A DNA stretch of 64,000 nucleotides. Source: Cyanidioschyzon merolae (Eukaryota). A program made the position numbers and the translations under genes. The notes beneath the pieces were generated by a model, which did not search any database, was not told the origin of the DNA, and saw only the letters and a list, made by a program, of their open reading frames with translations. Position 1 is the first letter of the stretch. The number at the start of each line of letters is the position of its first letter. The DNA lies in NCBI GenBank assembly GCA_000091205.1, contig AP006501.2, one strand, 5' to 3'. This document shows positions 3,457 through 56,622 of this stretch, in pieces.

Positions 3457-3540
3457 GCCGGCCACTGAAAACAAACGTCTTTCAAAAGAAAAACGCTGCC
3501 GCCAACGGTGTACAGTAGTTACGGGAAACGCGCCGTAAGC

Positions 3541-6500
3541 AAATCGTCTCCAGCTGAGGTGCAGACGCATCCCCGTCTTTTTCGACCGTCCACCTACTAC
3601 GTCTTTCATTTTCTTCTCATATAATTCCACTTTGAGAGGTCGCCCCACAGGTTCTCTCGTGTCGAATCTGGAGGTCTTTTCTCCAGCACCGCACATCTCC
3701 TGATATTGATAGCGACATTAAAGTCTCGGTTCACAAACTCCATGCGTTTCTTGCCATCTTTGGTTGTGCTTACTAATGCAAGTAGCCCACGAACTTTCGC
3801 CCTCCTTTCCATTTGCTCCTCCGTCAGCGGTCCGTACTTTGCTATTTCGTCAGGGCTCCTCTGGCACTTTTCCATCTCGATCCTTTGAAGTGTACAACAC
3901 AGTTCATGGTGTGTATACGATGTTCGGAACTCATCTACAGGTATTGTAACTAACCTGTCTGCACACCCCTTGTACGTTCTTGTCGTTGGAGCTCGTGTAC
4001 ACTCTTTTTCAGACGCCTAGCGCCCTGCTCCGTATGCTACTACCAGCCTTTGACTTTCATCCTCTTTGAAGGCACTCAGCTGACTGAAAAAGTTCGCGAA
4101 CGCACACTGCTTGCCACCGTATAGATTCATACGCAATCGAGGCCACCGGGGCTTTGTATACTCTTTCCACAGTGCCTCCTAATGAGCAATACGAACTTTC
4201 ATGAACTCCCGAAAAGCTTGAAAATCTGCTCCGCGGCTCGTCACCTCGCTCAAAGCTTCCAGGTGCTCTTTCATTCCTGCATTGCATGTCTCGTTTTTCT
4301 TCCTCGTATTCATCACACCGGATTCTCGATAGTATCTCGCTCTCGGGAACCTCAAAAGACGCATGTCTTTCTGAATGAAGTTGCCGTCTGGACCATATTC
4401 CGCACGCCTGGGTACAGCGATGGCTGTGACATTCGTATTCCCAGGGTCCGCGCCAACGACAAAGTCGTTATACTTCCTTTTCTGTGTGGCACAATCCGCC
4501 TCCTTCTCATCTTCATACCTCGTCACGTCAACGACAACGTCGTCATCCTCTACCTCTTGCGTAGCAGGATCCGCGTCTTTGTTTTCCTCATCCTTCGTGA
4601 CGGGCGCAGCCGAGGACGGAACTGGCCGAGCTGCCTTCAACCGCCGATAGTCTACACACTAGGCTACTCCATCGGTTTCGATCATCCCCGTGAATACCTT
4701 TTGCTTGCTCGTTTTGAGACGTTTGAAATCGAAGATGTTCTTCCAGTACGTCTCCCTGGTTTCACGGGTGAACTCTCTTTTCCTAAAGTTGAACTCCGGA
4801 CTGATTTCCCTCATGATGCCGTAAAGGACGCCGGAGTCGATAGTCACATAATGTGACTTGATGTTGCACAACGGAACGACGTTGAAGCGCTTCCCCATTA
4901 GGAAAGCCTTCTGTCTCTCCCACTCTTCATTCTTGTCCTCACTCGGCTTCATCTCCGCCTTGCGTTCGAGTTCACGGTCCAGAAACACGAAATAGCGCAG
5001 GATGAGGCGATAATGTCTTTCCTTATCTTTTTTCAACTCTGATACCTTTGCTGCTTGATTCGCCAGCCCCAGTACCGCACGGTGCTCTTGTATAGGCGCA
5101 CGGATTACAGAAGCTTCATTCGTGCTCCTGTGTGACGTCTTCTCATCAACGAATTCGATCTCATCTTCATGCTTGCGATCGTTCGTGATGCCATCGATAA
5201 TCGCCCATATTCCTTTGCGAGAGATGCCCGGATAGAGTGCAAACACCGCGCGTATGATGAAACGTTGGAGCTTCATGGTCATATGGTTCCTCAAGTTCGT
5301 GACGTACGTTTTCATCGCCCCGTAGGTGTAAACACTCGAGTCACCCCTGTATCGAGCACCGCCGAAGCGGGATTCGGTGTGGTTTTCGTGGAGGGCATGC
5401 ACTAGCTCATTTTGCTTCCGCGTTTCCGCTGTACCAAGCATCAGATGGCGAATAAAAGTCTTGTCGAATAATTCTTTCCGAACTTCGACTGTTTAGATGT
5501 CCGTCACGTCGCGATACATCCTCTTCACCAAATGCATGAGTCCTGAAGAGGCCTTTACAATACTCAAGGAGTACGACTCGTCATGGGTTCTGATAGCCTC
5601 CCGCACTTTTTCCCTGTACGGATCCTTGATATGTCCAAGAATACAGACTTTCACTACTGTCTCGTCGTACTGTCGTCTTTCTTGCAGCCATTGGCGTCGG
5701 GCTTCCATCTTTTGCTTCTTGGCCCTCTCCAGTTCCTGTGGACTCGGCACTGTTTTTCGGTTTTTTTTCTGGAAACCGGCGACACACTGGGCCTCCGGCA
5801 TCCTCCACTTCCACTTACGTACATTTCCTTTTTATTTTTTTGAAAAAGGAACCCCCTTTGACTGCTTCTTCTATGAACCGCGAACAATGACTTGAATACA
5901 CTCTCTTGAGAGTTGAAACACAACGGAATCGAAAAAATATACTTTGCTACGGCTTCAGAGCGAATACTACTCGTACATTAGAGCAGAATGCTAACGATCA
6001 GGATCGCGTTTCACTTCAACGGCGAGAAGCACGTCATGTATCATGCCCGCCAGATATGGAGATACGCGCATCGACCATGCTACACAAAAAAGGAAGAGAA
6101 ACTAGCAGTTCAATTGCAACGAGATAACGATTTCTTCTCCCTCTATGATACATATTAAAAGGGAGGCAAGATTTCCATGTAGTCGAAACTTTACTTTCCG
6201 GGCGGAAGGCCCTGCGAGCCGGACGAGTCTGCTAGACCAGTCCTTCATGATCTTCCCAGTGCTCAGTGCTGTGGTGATATTCGAGCAACTCGACCGAAAC
6301 GCAGTTTATTCTCGGGCCGGGGACGGGTATGCTGCGTCTGGGCATCGCGCTGGTCGCAGTGGACTCCTACAAAGTCGTTTCGCGCCACACTACACTGTAC
6401 CTCTGTCTGCGCAGAGTGCATGCTCCCAGGATGATATTGAATCCCGACCACGTTTCAGGTGAAGCTTTCCTCGATCCGAATCCCTCAGTGGTATGGCAAA

Positions 6501-24792: not shown

Positions 24793-25659
24793 TGGATATG
24801 AGTATAATGGCCAACTCGAGTGGCGAGCTGTGCATCCATGTGGCGGTGAACGAGTCCCGAAACGGTCGCTTGCTGAATACAGTCTACCTGTGGTCGACTT
24901 GTGCGCTGTTTCGGGCGCTTCGCAGAGTAGTCTCTGCTTATGCGTGCTCTGTCGGTCCGCCAATGCGGCTCGCGTCGAAGAGGGTATACAGCTGCTGAAA
25001 ATGTTCACCACGGTCGGTGTTCAGAAGTCTCTGCTTGTGCGTGCTCTGTCGGTCCGCCAATGCGGCTCGCGTCGAAGAGGGTGTACAGCTATTGGAAATG
25101 CTCGCCTCGGTCGGTGTTCAAAGCATCTGCGAGGAGGCCCTGCTGCCGTCCCAAGCGCAACAAATGCCCCAGTTCCGATCGTAGGAGCCATCCCGTCGCA
25201 GGTGCGCTGGTTTCACGCTCATTGACTGTTTTGACGGCGACGCGCTGGCGTGCAGCACTTGGTGACCCATGGGACGCTTCCAGACATCCGCGGTTCCGTT
25301 CAGCGCTTGCCTTTACGCCGTCCTGGTTCAACGGGAACGTCAGTCATCTCGAAACGGCAGCGTGTACCTACTCTGGTTTTAGGCTTCACGAGCGTGGATG
25401 AGCGGCTCACTAGTCGCTGCCTTGTCCCTAATGCGTCAGCATTCCACTTCCACGTGTCGAGCGTAGCACGTTAGGGTCTCCCTATCGCTAACTCGAAGCT
25501 GGTCCCCGGAAGCAGCTCTCTCCAACAGAGCCGCATCCCAGCTGAGGAATCAGCGCAACAGTTACAGCGACCAGGCGTTCACAACTCACTGTGCTCTGGG
25601 GGACTGCAGAACACGCAAGTCCATGGAATACTCTGGTTAATGGCGTGCAATCAAGATCA

Positions 25660-26559
25660 TCAACTAGCTGTGGCCGATAATCGTTTGTTCTGAACCTGGC
25701 GGCGACGCTGGTCAAAGTCCGTGAACCCCACCATTTCTGAGAGCGCTGCGGTTGGCGCTTCAGCCAGGTGCCCTCGATTACCCTCCAGTTCCAATCGTTG
25801 TAAAGCACCGAGTTCGATAAAGAGATCGACGGGCAGCGATTCTAAACGATTATGGTCCAAACACAGCTGCCGCAAGTTTTGCAAACCCCGCAACGACTCG
25901 ATATTTAAGGTTTGCAATTCATTTCGGGATAGGATCAACACTTCAAGCGCTGGAAAGGATTTGCTCAGCCATTTCGGGAGAGAGCTGATGTGATTTCCCG
26001 CGAGGTTGAGATACCGCAAGCAGGGAAAAACGATGTTCCTGCATGCATCAGGGACGCACGGCAGACGATTATCGCTTAACGATAGCCACTGCAGTGGCGA
26101 CGTCGGCTTGACACCGGACACCGGGTCTGGCTCGTGCTGCGCTTGTACACTCAAGTTGGCGCGGTGTTCGGTTGTGTGCAGGTCACCAATAGCATTTCGC
26201 GCCAGGTTAAGCGACCAAAGACGCGGCAGGGCGTATAGCAGTGCAGCTGGTACCGTGACTAGCTCGTTTTCGGACAGATCCAGTCGCTCCAGGCTCCGCA
26301 AGTGTTCCAGAAGCGAAGATGGAAACGTTTTCACCCCGCCATAGCGAGCGTAGAGCACTCGAACCCGCTCGCCGTGCTTCAACAGCTGAGGCACAGCGCG
26401 GTCCCAGTGGATGCTTTGAACCGATGCCACACCAGTTTGCAACCAGCGCTGTGCGCTTTCATCTTCGTTTCTGGAGTGCAGCGGATGTGAAGCTTCCCTA
26501 CTGCGTGCTCCAAAGCAGTCTGCGAGTACGTTCCCCATGAGCGGTAGCTGCAGCAGCAC
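25660..26559 (-). CDS. Leucine-rich repeat protein
   Basis: Repeated LxxLxLxxNxL units (LSENELVTVP, LNLARNAIGDL, LSLSDNRLPCVP, LNLAGNHISSLP, LILSRNELQTL, LCLDHNRLESLP, LELEGN). Confidence 0.5.
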   Translation of the reverse strand: MLLQLPLMGNVLADCFGARSREASHPLHSRNEDESAQRWLQTGVASVQSIHWDRAVPQLLKHGERVRVLYARYGGVKTFPSSLLEHLRSLERLDLSENELVTVPAALLYALPRLWSLNLARNAIGDLHTTEHRANLSVQAQHEPDPVSGVKPTSPLQWLSLSDNRLPCVPDACRNIVFPCLRYLNLAGNHISSLPKWLSKSFPALEVLILSRNELQTLNIESLRGLQNLRQLCLDHNRLESLPVDLFIELGALQRLELEGNRGHLAEAPTAALSEMVGFTDFDQRRRQVQNKRLSATAS

Positions 26560-26669
26560 TTGAAGCCATGAGCCCTTTTCGACCTTTCGTTGGTCTGTTC
26601 GGTAGTGGCAGCCGCCAAACTACGCTCTGATGTCGGGCGTCGCCACCAGCGGTGTAGAATAGTGGCGAG

Positions 26670-26880
26670 AAAGTCGACCCAGAAAAATCGTTTCTAGCTG
26701 TCGTGCAGACGCCTCCCCGTCCTTCTCGACCGGCCACGTACTACTGGTTCCATTTTTTTTCATATAGTTCCGCTTTGAGAGGTTGTCCAAGAAAAAGCTC
26801 TCGTGTCCACTCTGAAGGTCTTCTTTCCATCACCGCACATGTCCTTATATTGATAGCGGCATTAAAATCTCGGTTCACAA
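26670..26880 (-). ncRNA. Predicted omega RNA (guide RNA) locus of the Fanzor element. This is a positional inference only
   Basis: In TnpB and Fanzor systems the guide RNA overlaps the 3' end of the nuclease ORF and runs through the element end, with the guide from flanking DNA. Here the ORF stop at 26741 is 53 bp inside the element end at 26688. The 3' region is among the better-conserved parts between copies A and B. Confidence 0.2.
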
Positions 26881-29645
26881 ACTCCATACGTTTCTTGCCA
26901 TTGACTGTACTTAATAATGCGAGTAGTCCTCGAACATTCGCCCACCTTTCCATATGCTCCTCCGTCAGCGGTCCGTACTTTGCTATTTCGTCAGGGCTCC
27001 TCTGGCACTTTTCCATCTCGATCCTTTGAAGTGTACAACACAGTACATGGTGTGTATACGATGTTCGGAACTCATCTACAGGTACTATGACAAAACGTCG
27101 TGCGTACTCCTTATACGTTCTCGTCGTTGGAGCTGGTGTACACCCTTTTTGGGTCTTCGAGCGCGCTGCTCCGTACGCCACTACGAGCCTCTGACATTGA
27201 TCCTCTTTGAGGGCACTCAACCCATTGAAAAAATTCGCGAACGCCCGTTGCCTCCCACAATATAGATTCATACACAGACGAGCCCACCGAGGCTTTGTAT
27301 ATTCATTCCGCAGCGCATCCCAATGAGCAACACGAACATTCATGAATTTCAGAAAAGCTGTAAAGTCCGCTCCGCGGCTCGTCACCTCGCTCAAAGCTTC
27401 TACGTGATCCTTCATTCCTGCATTCCATGTCTCAATTTTCTTCGTTGCATTCATGATTCCCGATTCTCGATAGAATCTTGCTCTCGAGAACCTCAAAAGT
27501 CGCATGTCTTTCTGAAGCAAGTTACCGTCCTTACCATCTTCGGCACGCTTGGGTACAGCGATGGTTATGATATTTGTGTTTCCGGGGTCCGCGCCAACGA
27601 CAAAGTCTATCTCATGCACTTTCAGTGCCGCAGGATCCGCGTCTCTGTTTTCCTCATGCTTCGTCATGGGCGAAGCCGAAGGCACGATAGGAAGAAACGC
27701 CTCCAAGCGCTTGCAGTCTACACACAGGGCTACTCCATCGGTTTCGATCATCCCCGTGAATACCTTTTGCCTGCTAACTTTTGAGACGTCTGAAATCGAA
27801 GAGACTCTTCCAGTACGTGTCAGGGGCTTCGCCGGTGAACTCTGTCCGCCTTCCATCGAACTCCGGACAGATCCCCTTCATGATGCCATGAAGGACGCCG
27901 GAGTCGATAGTCACATAATGTGACTTGATGTTGCACAACGGAACGACGTTGAAGCGCTTCACCGCTAGGAAAGCCTTCTGTCTTTCCCACTCTTCACTCT
28001 TGTCCTCACTCGGCTTCATCTCCGCCTTGCGTTCGAGTTCACGGTCCAGAAACACGAAATAGCGCAGGATGAGGCGATAATGTCTTTCCTTATCTTTTTT
28101 CAACTCTGATACCTTTGCTGCTTGATTCGCCAGCCCCAGTACCGCACGGTGCTCTTGTATAGGCGCACGGATTACAGAAGCTTCATTCGTGCTCCTGTGT
28201 GACTTCTTCTCATCAACGAATTCGACCTCATCTTCATGCTTGCGATCGTTCGTGATGCCATCGATAATCGCCCATATTCCTTTGCGAGAGATGCCCGGAT
28301 AGAGTGCAAACACCGCGCGTATGATGAAACGTTGGAGCTTCATGGTCATATGGTTCCTCAAGTTCGTGACGTACGTTTTCATCGCCCCGTAGGTGTAAAC
28401 ACTCGAGTCACCCCTGTATCGAGCACCGCCGAAGCGGGATTCGGTGTGATTTTCGTGGAGGGCGTGCACTAGCTCATCTTGCTTCCGCGTTTCCGCTGTA
28501 CCAAGCATCAGATGGCGAATAAAAGTCTTGTCGAATAATTCTTTCCGAACTTCGACTGTTTAGATGTCCGTCACGTCGCGATACATCCTCTTCACCAAAT
28601 GCATGAGTCCTGAAGAGGCCTTTACAATACTCAAGGAGTACGACTCGTCATGGGTTCTGATAGCCTCCCGCACTTTTTCCCTGTACGGATCCTTGATATG
28701 TCCAAGAATACAGACTTTCACTTCTGTCTCGTCGTACTGTCGTCTTTCTTGCAGCCATTGGCGTCGGGCTTCCATCTTTTGCTTCTTGGCCCTCTCCAGT
28801 TCCTGTGGACTCGGCACTGTTTTTCGGTTTTTTTTTTCTGGAAACCGGCGACACACTGGGCCTCCGGCATCCTCCACTTCCACTTACGTACATTTCCTTT
28901 TTATTTTTTGAAAAAGGAACCCCCTTTGACTGCTTCTTCTATGAACCGCGAACAATGACTTGAATACACTCTCTTGAGAGTTGAAACACAACGGAATCGA
29001 AAAAATATACTTTGCTACGGCTTCAGAGCGAATACTACTCGTACATTAGAGCAGAATGCTAACGATCAGGATCGCGTTTCACTTCAACGGCGAGAAGCAC
29101 GTCATGTATCATGCCCGCCAGATATGGAGGTACGCGCATCGACCATGCTACACAAAAAAGGAAGAGGAACTAGCAGTTCAATTGCAACGAGATAACGATT
29201 TCTTCTCCCTCTATGATACATATTAAAAGGGAGGCAAGATTTCCATGTAGTCGAAACTTTACTTTCCGGGCGGAAGGCCCTGCGAGCCGGACGAGTCTGC
29301 TAGACCAGTCCTTCATGATCTTCCCAGTGCTCAGTGCTGTGGTGATATTCGAGCAACTCGACCGAAACGCAGTTTATTCTCGGGCCGGGGACGGGTATGC
29401 TGCGTCTGGGCATCGCGCTGGTCGCAGTGGACTCCTACAAAGTCGTTTCGCGCCACACTACACTGTACCTCTGTCTGCGCAGAGTGCATGCTCCCAGGAT
29501 GATATGGAATCCCGACCACGTTTCAGGTGAAGCTTTCCTCGATCCGAATCCCTCAGTGGTATGGCAAAGCCGCTCTGCCTCTATGATGCATCGGCATCAG
29601 CCGTATAAGCGCTTTTGCTGGAGGTCAAAGCGGGCACTCGGCGCC
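26688..29645 (-). mobile_element. Fanzor1-bearing mobile element, copy B, near intact
   Basis: ~2.96 kb repeat of copy A, inserted between the LRR gene and fabG. The Fanzor gene ends at 26741, 53 bp from the element terminus. There is ~750 bp of non-coding sequence 5' of the gene. No transposase ORF, TIRs or TSD were identified. Confidence 0.75.
26741..28883 (-). CDS. Fanzor1-like RNA-guided endonuclease candidate (eukaryotic TnpB homologue, RuvC-like)
   Basis: Three same-strand ORFs: 28883..28560 (basic, NLS-like, KKNRK...[12 protein letters not shown]), 28508..27774, and 27856..26741. Motifs present are [15 protein letters not shown] (RuvC-I Asp), [22 protein letters not shown]...C (TnpB motif flanking a degenerate zinc finger) and [19 protein letters not shown] (RuvC-III Asp). 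No canonical RuvC-II Glu lies upstream of the zinc finger, as in Fanzor1. The frame is broken by a 1-bp insertion near 27778 relative to copy A, and by an in-frame TAA at 28560. Confidence 0.75.
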
Positions 29646-29710: not shown

Positions 29711-30859
<1,149 letters not shown>

Positions 30860-40349: not shown

Positions 40350-40544
40350 GCAGACACGTATACTTCGCTGTTGCTGCTGGGACGTAGCTGAACAGAGCAG
40401 CCGATCCCGACACTGAGCGCGAACGAACAAAGCTTCTCGGTAAACACCAGACTGGAGGAACATCCAGACTCGGCATCTCGAAGCGGTGGATCACTGCGGC
40501 CGACACTACGGCATTCTCCCGAGACGCTTCCATTGCGGTATCGA

Positions 40545-41255
40545 GTACGCTGATGAAGCGGGGAACTTGGCGACTGAGACAAAGTCTTCAACGTAGAAGC
40601 CTCATGGTGCAAGGATCGGGTGTATAAAGGTACGAGATACTGCGAACTTGGCGACTGAGGCACAGTCTTCAACGTAGAAGCCTCATGGTGCAAGGATCGG
40701 GTGTATAGAGGTACGAGATACTGCGAACTTGGCGACTGAGGCACAGTCTTCAACGTAGAAGCCTCATGGTGCAAGGGTCGGGTGTATAGAGGTACGAGAT
40801 ACTGCGAACTTGGCGACTGAGGCACAGTCTTCAACGAAGAAGCCTCATGGTGCAAGGATCGGGTGTATAAAGGTACGAGATACTGCGAACTTGGCGACTG
40901 AGGCACAGTCTTCAACGAAGAAGCCTCATGGTGCAAGGATCGGGTGTATAAAGGTACGAGATACTGCGAACTTGGTGACTGAGACACAGTCTTCAACGAA
41001 GAAGCCTCATGGTGCAAGGATCGGGTGTATAAAGGTACGAGATACTGCGAACTTGGCGACTGAGACAAAGTCTTCAACGTAGAAGCCTCATGGTGCAAGG
41101 ATCGGGTGTATAGAGGTACGAGATACTGCGAACTTGGCGACTGAGGCACAGTCTTCAACGAAGAAGCCTCATGGTGCAAGGATCGGGTGTATAAAGGTAC
41201 GAGATACTGCGAACTTGGCGACTGAGACAAAGTCTTCAACGTAGAAGCCTCATGG
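40545..41255. repeat. 81-bp minisatellite, about 8.7 tandem copies
   Basis: Unit gaacttggcgactgag(a/g)ca(a/c)agtcttcaacg(t/a)agaagcctcatggtgcaaggatcgggtgtata(a/g)aggtacgagatactgc recurs every 81 bp from 40563. The period is divisible by 3, which yields the artefactual 306-aa repeat ORF 40319..41239. Confidence 0.9.
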
Positions 41256-41602
41256 TATATGCATGATATCTAAATCCAACGATACATAAACTAGACCCGC
41301 GCACGCAAACTGCTTGTACGTGACTGTTGCCCCCGGAGAGCAACTGCATACCCTGCCGAGTCCTCGTTGACTTGAAGCAGCGAAAGCGACTGCTTTCGCT
41401 ACTTCCATACCACATCGCTACAGCGCTATCCGCTCGTGAACGCTTTCCGTATGCACCACCGCTCTTGCTCGGGTTGTTCCCGGTACTGCTTCACCTAGAG
41501 CAGGTCCAGTGCACGCACGTGTTTGTTGCCGCAAACTTGTTTACGTTCTTGTTGGTTCTCATGTTCCACATCATGGGTTTTCTTCTGGGCTACCACTTTC
41601 GT

Positions 41603-53816: not shown

Positions 53817-54883
53817 GGTGACGACTGGAGCGATCATTCGCTGCCGTCGCTGCTGCAGCTGATTTTTTACCTCTGACGAGGGGTTTCTATTGTATTTGGA
53901 ATCGCGTATTGCGGGATGGATATTACGATTTATGTAAGTGTTCATCAGGATGCTGAACTTCAAGTTCCATGACAGATACTTCCTTGCGGATGTACTGGTC
54001 GTTTCGGACGTTCTATCATGAGTCTAGTGCCTGCAGTACGCATACGCGTTAGCGCCGAGACCGCTGGAGCGGATATTTCATAGAGCCCGAACGGCTTTGC
54101 CATACGACTGGGGCGGGGGGTGTTGGCCCAAGGCATGATTCACTGGACATCGGGGTCGGAGCGTAGAATCATTCTGGGAGCGTGCAAGCTGTGCAGACGC
54201 ACTGCCTGTGGCAGCAGCGCGAAGCGATATACAAGGAGTACACTGCGACCAGGGCGATGCCCAGACGCTGGCTAACTGCTCGAAATCCCAGAATAAGCGG
54301 CGTTTCTGACGAGTTGCCCAGGTCTCAATAAAGCTCCTGCAACTGGGGGCCTGAAGCACAAGCCTGGCAGGCTCGTGCGACTCGCGGGACCTTACGTCCA
54401 GAAGGTAAACTCTCGACGATACGGAAACCTTTGCCCCCTTTTATCGTTTGTCGTAGAGGGGCAAAGAAAATGTTATCTCGCTACTAGTTTGTAACTAGTC
54501 TCTGTCCTTTTGGGTATATCATGCGCTCGATACGCGCACCTCCATATCTGGCAGTCACAAGACCTGACGTGTATCGCGCCGATGAAGGGAAACGCGATCC
54601 TGATCATGAGCGTGTAGCTCCAACGTACAGGACGCATTTGCGTTGAGGTCATGCGAAAGTATAGTATTTCATCCCAGATGAGTTTCGACCCTCAATGGAG
54701 TGTATTCAAGTGATTTTTCGCGGTTTATAGTAGTAGCGTTCAAAGAGCATTCTTTTCCAAAAACAAAAAATCCAAGGGACAGGTATCGACCTGGATGTTG
54801 GGAATCCTTAAGGGCCATCATCGTCGAATTCGACGAAGAATAACCGAAGAAGAAATCCTCTTTTCGTCGACTATCGAGCGAAC

Positions 54884-55138
54884 ATGAGCGAACGATGCGG
54901 ACGAAGAAGACCGAGAATGGATGTAGGCGAGAAAGTGTGTGCCCGACGAGACGATGACGAGACTGTAGTGGCACAGAGGGCGCGGGTTCTGGGAATCCTT
55001 GGAAAATTGCGTTCAGCCAGAGGCAATAAACGTATGGTGCTCGTGAACCGAGACTTTAACGCCGTCATCAATATCAGACGATGGGCGGTGCTGAAGACGA
55101 GACACGAGGAGCTTACGCGATCTAGCTTTGTGGAGTAG
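54884..55138 (+). pseudogene. Solo relic of Fanzor/TnpB C-terminus (RuvC-III region)
   Basis: ETVVAQRARVLGILGKLRSARGNKRMVLVNRDFNAVINIRRWAVLKTRHEEL aligns with copy [47 protein letters not shown]. The antisense reading TALKSRFTSTIRLLP matches antisense ORFs in copies A and B. No upstream nuclease domains remain. Confidence 0.6.
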
Positions 55139-56125
55139 CCTCTCATGGGCGATGTGTACAGGGAGAAGCTGAAACCGATAGCAGGTCGCCTGTGTAGATA
55201 GGCTGGGAGGCGTCTGCACGTGGGTGTCAGTTTACGATCTCGAGGCGACGCCTCCAGTGGTGCGGAAAGGCCGTTCTGTCTGCGCTAATGCGAGACGCGT
55301 GGTGGTTACCTGGGCCCTGCTTTTCCCTTATAGGCTATTACGTGAGCCCTTGGGCACCTTCAGCACAGAAACGTTTCCAGTCTGCAACGTGGCGGGATAA
55401 GCGAGTCGAGCTCGGAGCGCTCCGTGTACAATCACGCTGTCTCCTTTCGCAAGTTACGATGCGTACCTGTTTCGCGGCTGGATTTTTGGCACCAAAAGCG
55501 CTGTAGGTACCGGGTTCAGGTACAGTTCCATCTCGCCAGATGCTGTTGGTGTCGAAGGATCGGCTTCAGGAGGAGGTAAGCGTCCGGCATTGCGTACCAA
55601 GAGGTCTGCGACGAGGCGTTCATCGCGCAGTTCGTCGCATCAGCAGGCGGGCACTGCTTGTAATCGACTGCCTGAGCGCTTCATTGAGACGATTCATAAA
55701 AGCCATCGTCGCCTTCAGATATCACTCTGAGAACTGTTTGGACGCTGCAGAACGATTCTCGGGATGCGCGAAACATGCCCAGAGTCGGCACCTGGCATGG
55801 GGTAGGGTCCTGGTCTGTTGTGGTGTAGGATCCTTAAATCTAACCAGGTTTCTGGCGATGCGCATCCGCTTCTGATGACCACGAAAGAGGCCTCGTTCGC
55901 TTCACTAGCGCATGTGTGTGTTCGGCAAGTCCCAGTCAAAATGCCCAACAGGTATAGAGGCTTGCTCATTCCAAAGGAACAGCGGTTATCGAGTCTACAG
56001 TGGGCGCTCGCGCCACCGCGGGCTCATTCTCACACGCTCACCGCAGAGGTTCGTTTCCTAACGAGCAACTCGCGCGTCTGCAGGCGCATTCTCCAACGAG
56101 ATGCCGACCCTGAAAACGTATATTT

Positions 56126-56345
56126 CGCTGTATTCCAAGTCTGGAATCATCCGAGGCACTAGATGCGAAGGCAGCCGGTTTCGGGAAGTGCTCGTCCCAG
56201 TCTGATACCGGAAATCCCGCTGTATTCCAGGTCTGGAATCATCCGAGGCACTAGATGCGAAGGCATCCGGTTTCGGGAAGTGGTAGTGCCTCCATCCGAT
56301 CGTATATCTCGTTGTACCCCAGGTCTGTAATCATCCAGATCACGA
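56126..56345. repeat. 92-bp tandem repeat, ~2.4 copies
   Basis: cgctgtattcca(a/g)gtctggaatcatccgaggcactagatgcgaaggca(g/t)ccggtttcgggaagtg repeats at 56126 and 56218, with a degenerate third partial unit at 56310. Confidence 0.7.
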
Positions 56346-56622
56346 CATACATAGGCATTATGTGTCGGGTACTCGACATTCCGCCTTGCTCGTGCTTCGC
56401 GCTGGCATACGATACAAATGAAGCACAGCCGCAGTTGCGCAGTCGCGGTTGCCAGGCCCGCGTTGCGTACGGCTGCGATGCCCGCCGGAGGACACAGCCT
56501 TGTGCTACGCTGGGCTCGTGCGGCGTTGCGCCCGTATACTGTTGGGCTCCGTTGGAGACGGTATGTCGGTTAGGTGGAAGCGGCTTCAAGCACAGCTCGG
56601 TTTCCTGTCTAGTGGACTGCGC

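Follow-up and report, generated by a model that had tools for sequence, protein, structure and literature searches.

A predicted omega-RNA scaffold at the 3' end of a Fanzor1 transposon family in Cyanidioschyzon merolae

Introduction

A stretch of 64,000 nucleotides of Cyanidioschyzon merolae DNA (contig AP006501.2, GenBank assembly GCA_000091205.1), called the window below, carries two decayed copies, A and B, of a transposon that encodes the RNA-guided nuclease Fanzor1. The last 70-90 nt of this element, which lie downstream of the consensus stop codon of the family, are probably the scaffold of its omega-RNA. This reading is preferred because the tail shares its place, size and layout with the omega-RNAs of solved Fanzor1 complexes and because its terminal hairpin is rich in G.U pairs. 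What is new here is a predicted omega-RNA for the Fanzor1 of a transposon family described in 2013.

The putative scaffold would consist of a GC-rich hairpin (hp2, a candidate for stem-loop 1, SL1), a single-stranded linker GCCACUACUGUA and a terminal CAC...GUG hairpin (a candidate for stem-loop 2, SL2). We infer that the structure acts as RNA: transcription of the gene strand 15-20 nt beyond the hairpin would add a guide derived from the flank, and the Fanzor1-RNA complex would then cut DNA matching that flank. The two copies, their genes and the parts of their tails are as follows.

26609 to ~29804, minus strand: element copy B, ~3.2 kb
~3465 to ~6734, minus strand: element copy A, ~23.1 kb upstream of copy B
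26741-28883, minus strand: Fanzor1 pseudogene of copy B, in three open reading frame (ORF) pieces (28883-28560, 28508-27774 and 27856-26741)
3612-5402, minus strand: Fanzor1 pseudogene of copy A, in a single frame, with three or more in-frame stops plus a C-terminal frameshift
26679-26740, minus strand: frameshifted remnant of the consensus C-terminal tail in copy B, from the protein alignment and consensus translation
26681-26693, minus strand: hairpin hp1 (AGAC/GUCU), which holds the consensus stop, recurs in per-copy folds and is broken in copy B
26662-26679, minus strand: hairpin hp2 (GGGCGGG-UUU-CUCGCC.C), 7-8 bp and GC-rich in per-copy folds, the candidate SL1, weakened in copy B
26655-26666, minus strand: near-invariant motif GCCACUACUGUA, read as GCCACTATTCTA in copy B, the linker between the hairpins (column identity of 90% or more across 54 copies)
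26609-26654, minus strand: terminal hairpin of copy B, degenerate, from per-copy folds and a profile end (nhmmer) at 26613
3463-3510, minus strand: terminal hairpin of copy A, well preserved, with an uncertain end at 3463-3467 (covariance model R1 match at 3465-3517, 50.5 bits; nhmmer end at 3470)
3511-3549, minus strand: hp1 (3549-3537), hp2 (3535-3518) and motif (3522-3511) of copy A from alignment A5, spanning the segment 3518-3540 that had been taken for a guide

Anatomy and Boundary of the 3' Tail

An earlier, sequence-only reading of this DNA had placed the stop of the Fanzor gene at 26741, close to the end of the element. The stop codon at 26741-26743 is real and ends a 371-aa minus-strand ORF in the ORF list of the window. 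In copy B it is a product of a frameshift in an A-run and not the stop of the family. According to the protein alignment and the consensus translation, the consensus ORF runs ~20 codons further (..ELYEKKLEAVVGGRSKKxGRRLHVSWRRFV*), and its TAG corresponds to 26681-26679, where copy B reads TGG. The expectation of a scaffold at the 3' end of the gene held in so far as a structured, strand-specific module does occupy the element end; nearly all of this module, however, lies downstream of the consensus stop and not within the ORF.

CAC, straight after CUGUA, opens the terminal hairpin, and GUG, at the element's last base, closes it. Its inner stem occurs in two main types, CGUUCGA-CUU-UCGAACG and CGUUUUUC-UUUU-GAAAGRCG, and the outer stem varies together with its matching partner (CACCG/UGGUG, CACGC/GCGUG, CACGA/UCGUG, CACAG/CUGUG). 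At the same position the loci L025, L011, L023 and L032 carry a hairpin of unrelated sequence.

The element had been taken to end at about 26688. The identity between copies A and B merely drops there, and the homology continues to 26613-26609: the two copies are 80% identical over 26689-26757, 62% over 26655-26688, 54% over 26609-26654 and 18% in the flank (26598-26608). The sequence-only reading had two copies to go by, which show this drop in identity. For a broader comparison, 80 loci were fetched from metagenome contigs; in a blastn search against them about 75 independent copies align with the tail of copy B as far as window positions 26632-26660, with the homology ending at 26646 +/- 10. 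A tail profile (nhmmer) extends to 26613 in copy B and to 3470 in copy A, the terminal hairpin of copy B closes at 26609, and identity to the family consensus falls from ~0.7 to ~0.35-0.4 within a few bases past that hairpin. The true boundary of copy B is at 26609, ~80 bp beyond 26688.

This shift changes what can count as flank. The segments 26665-26687 (B) and 3518-3540 (A), proposed as flank-derived guides that differ as independent insertions should, turned out to lie inside the element; they are homologous, with 13 of 23 positions identical, and they span hp2 and the start of the conserved motif. The 3' module instead ends at the right end of the element (26609-26613 in B, 3463-3470 in A), as expected of an omega-RNA, and unrelated sequence follows. 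Guides derived from the flank would start at 26608 in copy B and at ~3462-3466 in copy A, and for copy B the candidate is:

26589-26608, minus strand: flank CCACUACCGAACAGACCAAC, the first bases without similarity to other copies

Transcription past the element end would make these bases the putative guide of this copy.

A separate observation concerns the first letters of the flank. After the terminal hairpin it starts with CCACTAC.. in two independent copies, namely B (26589-26609) and L077/L073 (L077:1808-1830), and thereby repeats GCCACTACTGTA, the internal motif in front of the hairpin. For a 7-mer at one fixed position, two occurrences in ~55 copies lie far above chance expectation; insertion into the tail of another copy, or a duplication at insertion, are candidate causes.

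Structure of the Tail across Copies

The pairing of hp1 and hp2 was scored in 54 non-redundant copies. Pairing is retained in 81% of cells in hp1, with two pairs showing double changes, and in 87% of cells in hp2; an alternative register fits worse. Pair 96:101 of hp2 flips between G-C (21 copies) and C-G (15 copies) and has the highest mutual information of the whole alignment.

The terminal hairpin was examined by tests that need no alignment. Its native arms fold at -18.0 kcal/mol as against -15.3 kcal/mol for between-copy chimeras (Wilcoxon p=4e-4). Similarly, the sense strand (-18.0 kcal/mol) is more stable than the antisense strand (-12.2 kcal/mol) in 51 of the 54 copies (p=4e-10). The terminal region stands out against 499 windows taken from the ORF: it has a sense energy of -18.0 kcal/mol where the ORF windows have -10.0 kcal/mol (p=6e-22), and a strand difference of -5.8 where they have -1.5 (p=7e-13). 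The sense-strand G.U pairs of the hairpin clearly exceed the compositional baseline. A recurrent, stable and strand-specific terminal hairpin with co-varying arms is present at the element end in this family. The many G.U pairs suggest that the structure is read on the gene strand.

With 18 copies as its basis, the covariance model R1 finds 44 copies, including copy A (50.5 bits); copy B went undetected at E<=0.01. In the R1 alignment 69.5% of cells pair, compared with 30-53% when the partners are slid, and 11 of 19 pairs have undergone double changes, a count that 10 of 500 shuffles reach. RNAalifold applied to 19 copies of one type returned hp1 and the terminal stem, and in addition a long-range helix in which the coding segment CAGUA..GGUGG (A-V-V-G-G) pairs with CGCC.CUACUG. 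This helix is 90% paired and shows zero covariation; since it also competes with hp2, it is retained solely as an alternative. Wobble-compatible columns swamped a naive covariance score, which was set aside. In well-kept copies the sense strand folds better than shuffled sequence, with z of -4.3 (L077) and -5.9 (L069) vs. -1.2 and -2.8 for the antisense strand. The fold and covariation analysis that the sequence-only reading had called for thus delivers recurrent, stable, strand-specific hairpins, while the formal covariation support for the tail structure is modest.

A sense-strand structure directly past a stop codon could also belong to the Fanzor mRNA, as a stability or 3'-end-formation element of the 3' untranslated region (3'-UTR) rather than as a guide RNA, and the U/G-rich bases that follow the hairpin in many copies would suit such an element. 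The structure stops exactly at the element boundary, though, which an mRNA signal need not do, and, by analogy with the Fanzor1 complexes of known structure, a guide scaffold is the favoured reading. We know of no such 3'-UTR signal in red algae, which counts against this explanation as well, and we consider it very unlikely.

The following results weigh against an omega-RNA in the tail. The support for hp1 and hp2 rests mostly on invariant pairs. Pairing in the R1 alignment reaches only 69.5% of cells, the covariation score of this alignment is not above shuffles, and RNAalifold found no structure in 70 copies aligned with MAFFT. The two copies of the window fold no better than shuffles (z of -1.23 for B and -0.38 for A). 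Rfam gives nothing at gathering score in the whole window and, within 26400-27100, chance-level matches only (E>1). There is no extra synonymous constraint at the end of the gene: third positions stand at 0.855 in the last 165 nt of the ORF and at 0.831 elsewhere (p=0.49), and only codon positions 1 and 2 relax in this segment. Tail identity (0.72-0.91) is close to the third-codon-position baseline, so that conservation alone is explained by common descent. No transposon-adjacent motif (TAM) was found in 16 independent left flanks, where none of the 8 positions before the end exceeds 0.35 bits. Strand-specific hairpins are equally expected for the ends of single-strand DNA transposons. Furthermore, co-variation of hairpin arms can arise without selection, through within-strand template switching.

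The last point, taken further, would make the tail an inherited palindrome in a dead repeat family, without present function, whose arms co-vary by template switching or gene conversion. Such a history would agree with the tail identity at the third-codon-position baseline, with the weak formal covariation, with the pseudogene state of most copies and with the perfect, recent-looking 15-bp palindrome of L025. It is nevertheless quite improbable. Template switching predicts perfect arms and not wobble-rich ones, whereas the sense-strand G.U excess goes well beyond the compositional baseline; hairpins of unrelated sequence have been retained at the same position. In addition, the ORF was under purifying selection during the spread of the family (codon positions 1 and 2 at 0.94 vs. 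position 3 at 0.83), and although most copies are pseudogenes some long ORFs survive, the longest among the 80 loci having 722 aa (L037, 2717-4885).

Identity of the Encoded Protein

The protein encoded at 26741-28883 on the minus strand is a Fanzor1. It is identified as such because the family profile matches solved Fanzor1 structures and the AlphaFold model resembles SpuFz1. Simpler searches were silent: the window ORFs and close relatives gave zero matches in Pfam and NCBIfam, as did a PDB sequence search with the ORF alone or with a close-family profile. A search of 5.8 billion proteins returned 254 relatives, nearly all from Joint Genome Institute (JGI) metagenomes, and a profile search of 1.84 billion representatives returned 1580, mostly of 600-700 aa. 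Solved Fanzor1 proteins were reached only with the deep profile from the latter search. The broad profile, A6, was built from 81 of the 1580 relatives, and in the PDB it matches PpFz1 of Parasitella (9cf0, E=1e-21), SpuFz1 of Spizellomyces (8gkh, E=1.3e-14) and GtFz1 of Guillardia (9cer, E=1e-6). The homology in fold and sequence extends across the recognition and wedge (REC/WED) and RuvC regions.

The DPG, DEFRT and NRD motifs line up between profile A6 and the solved proteins. Fanzor1 is defined at its catalytic site by D...E...D in GxDPG, (V/L)DE(F/Y)(R/K)TS and NRDxNAA, and the corresponding triad D318/E490/D559 is invariant across the 81 relatives; the last ORF of copy B (27856-26741) carries the RuvC motifs, including NRDFNAAIN. 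The AlphaFold2 model computed with a deep alignment has a mean predicted local distance difference test score (pLDDT) of 83.6 and a predicted template modeling score (pTM) of 0.78; with a shallow alignment pLDDT was only 33. When this model was compared with the PDB by Foldseek, the seven best matches were Fanzor1 chains (SpuFz1, PpFz1, GtFz1), followed by TnpB and Cas12. The best, SpuFz1, has E=2.4e-13 and a template modeling (TM) score of 0.64 over ~600 columns.

The C4 zinc ribbon (TNB, the motif of Bao & Jurka) is incomplete. In the protein alignment the region reads THHELGC..(9)..EKC and the second CxxC is absent; two distant relatives match PF07282 weakly, below threshold. The TNB domain looks degenerate, with membership in the Fanzor1 fold still holding. 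In copy B this region lies at 26950-27060 on the minus strand.

Other observations on the protein family can be recorded here. Just N-terminal of the RuvC-I motif, family proteins (P0002, P0010 and P0015) carry 0 to ~6 tandem acidic repeats of ~20 aa (..DNDLVVxAxKHEEKKEAxPATQEV..). The site corresponds to 27560-27700 on the minus strand, where copy B is without extra repeats, and the AlphaFold confidence of the region is below 50. Relatives including P0003 and P0010 carry the precomputed Pfam assignment PF26935, named DUF8286; this 'domain of unknown function' is therefore part of Fanzor1. The gene of a distant relative from a brine metagenome, P0122, adjoins a DDE_3 (Tc1/mariner-type) transposase gene; its context is uninformative, as the contig stops 32 nt past the gene.

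Comparison with Known Fanzor1 and TnpB Systems

Saito et al. (2023, PMC10432273) described the SpuFz1 omega-RNA as a 75-nt scaffold lying between stop codon and 3' repeat, followed by 14-15 variable nt. According to Xu et al. (2024, PMC11423790), Fanzor1 omega-RNAs have a 7-bp SL1 and an SL2, then the guide, and in SpuFz1 and PpFz1 a single SL2 precedes the guide. The algal family agrees with SpuFz1 in protein fold, in the length of the scaffold (~70-90 nt vs. 75 nt) and in layout, with two hairpins, a first stem of ~7 bp and unrelated flank directly after. It differs from SpuFz1 in that the proteins are only 14-15% identical, the second zinc-ribbon CxxC is missing, and terminal inverted repeats (TIRs), target-site duplications (TSDs) or a visible left-end motif are absent. 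Moreover, its predicted guide-proximal stem varies in sequence and, at 17-20 bp, is of unusual length.

The right end of IS200/IS605 elements and the omega-RNA of TnpB (right-end element RNA, reRNA, e.g., of ISDra2) offer a second comparison. Here too a terminal or subterminal hairpin on one strand occurs without TIRs or TSDs, and the nuclease gene's 3' end together with the right end gives rise to the omega-RNA, whose guide comes from the flank, as is predicted in the algal family. IS200/IS605 elements have subterminal hairpins at both ends, a Y1 HUH transposase and insertion 3' of a fixed target of 4-5 nt. Unlike IS200/IS605, the algal elements have a eukaryotic host and a Fanzor1 with a large REC lobe, their left end has no target motif (16 flanks) and a weak hairpin, and no TnpA-like Y1 transposase was seen in them, though no transposase search was made.

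The element matches the description of CMe-1A of C. merolae. By Bao & Jurka (2013, PMC3627910) the latter is described as ~3 kb long and present in ~150 copies ~80% identical to their consensus; it has no TIRs, its TSDs could not be determined, few intact Fanzor1 ORFs are left, and its first 635 bp at the 5' end form a separate element, TE-N2_CMe. That account predates omega-RNAs, and the text available describes no hairpin or 3' tail for CMe-1A. The family studied here resembles this description closely, being a ~3 kb Fanzor1-only element of a Cyanidiales-type genome with ~80% identical copies, no TIRs, no findable TSDs, a separable ~635-bp 5' module that is also found on its own, and few intact ORFs among many decayed copies. 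The window has a GC content of 50-60%, its element is 3.2 kb long, and copy tails are 77-83% identical (blastn). By the published description, copies A and B belong, in decayed form, to a CMe-1A-like family of Fanzor1 transposons in a Cyanidioschyzon/Cyanidiococcus-type red alga.

The Element Family and Its Two Ends

The family consists of a common core with at least five unrelated 5' heads and one sharp 3' end. The 5' module of copy B occurs in both orientations; other copies lack it. A further copy and the left end of copy B were located as follows.

29795-29812, minus strand: 5' end of copy B (blastn ends at 29801-29812, nhmmer left-end profile at 29804, where column information climbs); it opens the 5' module that fits the published description of TE-N2
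53865-55129, plus strand: element copy C, degenerate and inverted, with ~70% identity to copy B in the 5' module

Copy C retains a 58-aa RuvC-III fragment, and an extra left-end-like fragment lies at 838-895 on the plus strand; a 3' module was detectable in neither. The family core begins at CATCGCGCTCGGTG (window 29040-29260; loci L010, L012, L039, L069 and others), and one head, taken to be the TE-N2-like 5' module, abuts the same core start, CAUCGCGCUCGGUG, in both orientations. Another class of 5' head holds the perfect palindrome GGACACGTGTCC. The left and right flanks of element copies have no TSD in common, and the 80 fetched metagenome loci include no empty sites. An attempt to find an orthologous empty site through the neighbouring leucine-rich repeat (LRR) gene was dropped, as its nearest homologues are only 59-60% identical in protein sequence (the best named one, at 60%, is from Cyanidiococcus yangmingshanensis).

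The 3' module also occurs alone. At L079:1234-1340 a stretch of 107 nt begins with GCGTCTGCAC and spans both hairpins, and the sequence upstream of it contains nothing of Fanzor. Either a copy has undergone strong 5' truncation here, or this is a 'ghost' locus without a gene, of the kind reported for SpuFz1.

One 3' end combined with many 5' heads fits one-ended or single-strand movement. This opens the principal alternative, in which the terminal hairpin and the motif are only a DNA-level end signal, read on one strand by an unknown transposase with no guide RNA at all, in the manner of the IS200/IS605 right-end hairpin or the hairpin at Helitron 3' ends. In its favour, the strand-specific hairpin occupies the very terminus, the family is without TIRs or TSDs (PMC3627910), and the pattern of at least five 5' heads with one well-defined 3' end, together with the solo module of L079, suits one-ended or rolling-circle-like mobility. 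Yet the hairpin at the left end, as seen in folds of left-end sequences, is weak and inconsistent, and the encoded protein is a Fanzor1, whose characterised relatives all draw their omega-RNA from exactly such a site (PMC10432273, PMC11423790). A DNA end signal on its own is in our estimate unlikely; it could equally be a parallel reading, since DNA-end and RNA roles are not mutually exclusive. As for Helitron or Helitron2 elements in particular, they were rejected as a match: such elements start with 5'-TC (or T) and have CTRR 10-12 nt after a 3' hairpin, Helitron2 also having asymmetric terminal inverted repeats, whereas the 3' end here is the hairpin itself (..GGUG) and not CTRR. Neither an asymmetric terminal inverted repeat nor a reverse complement of the sub-hairpin motif was seen by eye in the inspected left-end sequences, for which no systematic search was made.

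Beside its predicted role in an omega-RNA, the terminal hairpin may also serve as a transposon DNA end signal, as at the right end of IS200/IS605. The full combination, in which an unclassified eukaryotic element without TIRs or TSDs and with swappable 5' heads uses one strand-specific hairpin, its sole fixed cis feature, both as its DNA end and as the guide-proximal stem of the omega-RNA, is a long shot. In that case the spread of the element might even depend on breaks made by Fanzor and not on a dedicated transposase.

State of the Window Copies

The gene of copy B requires two frames (tblastn with P0025) and has, in addition, the C-terminal frameshift in the A-run. The frameshift at 27770-27780 that splits it is missing in L003, an orthologous metagenome contig with an ORF of 588 aa, and present in L001 and L002; this contrast reflects either a population polymorphism or an assembly difference. 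In the tail of copy B hp1, hp2 and the terminal stem are all eroded, whereas in copy A the terminal stem is intact and hp2 is damaged. Because both copies are pseudogenes with eroded hairpins, both loci are probably inactive.

Other Features of the Window

On the plus strand, 29711-30859 is an ORF for a FabG-like short-chain dehydrogenase (Pfam adh_short, E=4e-65). The first ATG of this ORF falls within the 5' end of element B, the left end of which is at ~29804. Either this gene starts at a later Met or element B contributes its 5' end. Tandem repeats unrelated to the element have a period of 81 nt at 40482-41348 (at least 8 units, 94-98% alike), of 92 nt at 56110-56385 (3 units) and of 97 nt at 24926-25119 (2 units).

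Conclusions

For the window itself the outcome is mainly a correction: it holds two decayed loci, and the guides once proposed for them are internal to the element. For the family, the analysis supplies a definition of the ends of CMe-1A, whose termini and class stayed open in 2013. If the tail is an omega-RNA, then the scaffold, the exact junction between scaffold and guide and a candidate intact gene (the 722-aa ORF of L037) are thereby provided. Should the hairpin be both DNA end and RNA stem, this would parallel, in a eukaryote, the dual DNA/RNA use of the right end of IS200/IS605. In general, if the proposed reading is true, a thermoacidophilic red alga would possess a Fanzor1 that is a heat- and acid-adapted eukaryotic RNA-guided nuclease, and one that is directly testable.

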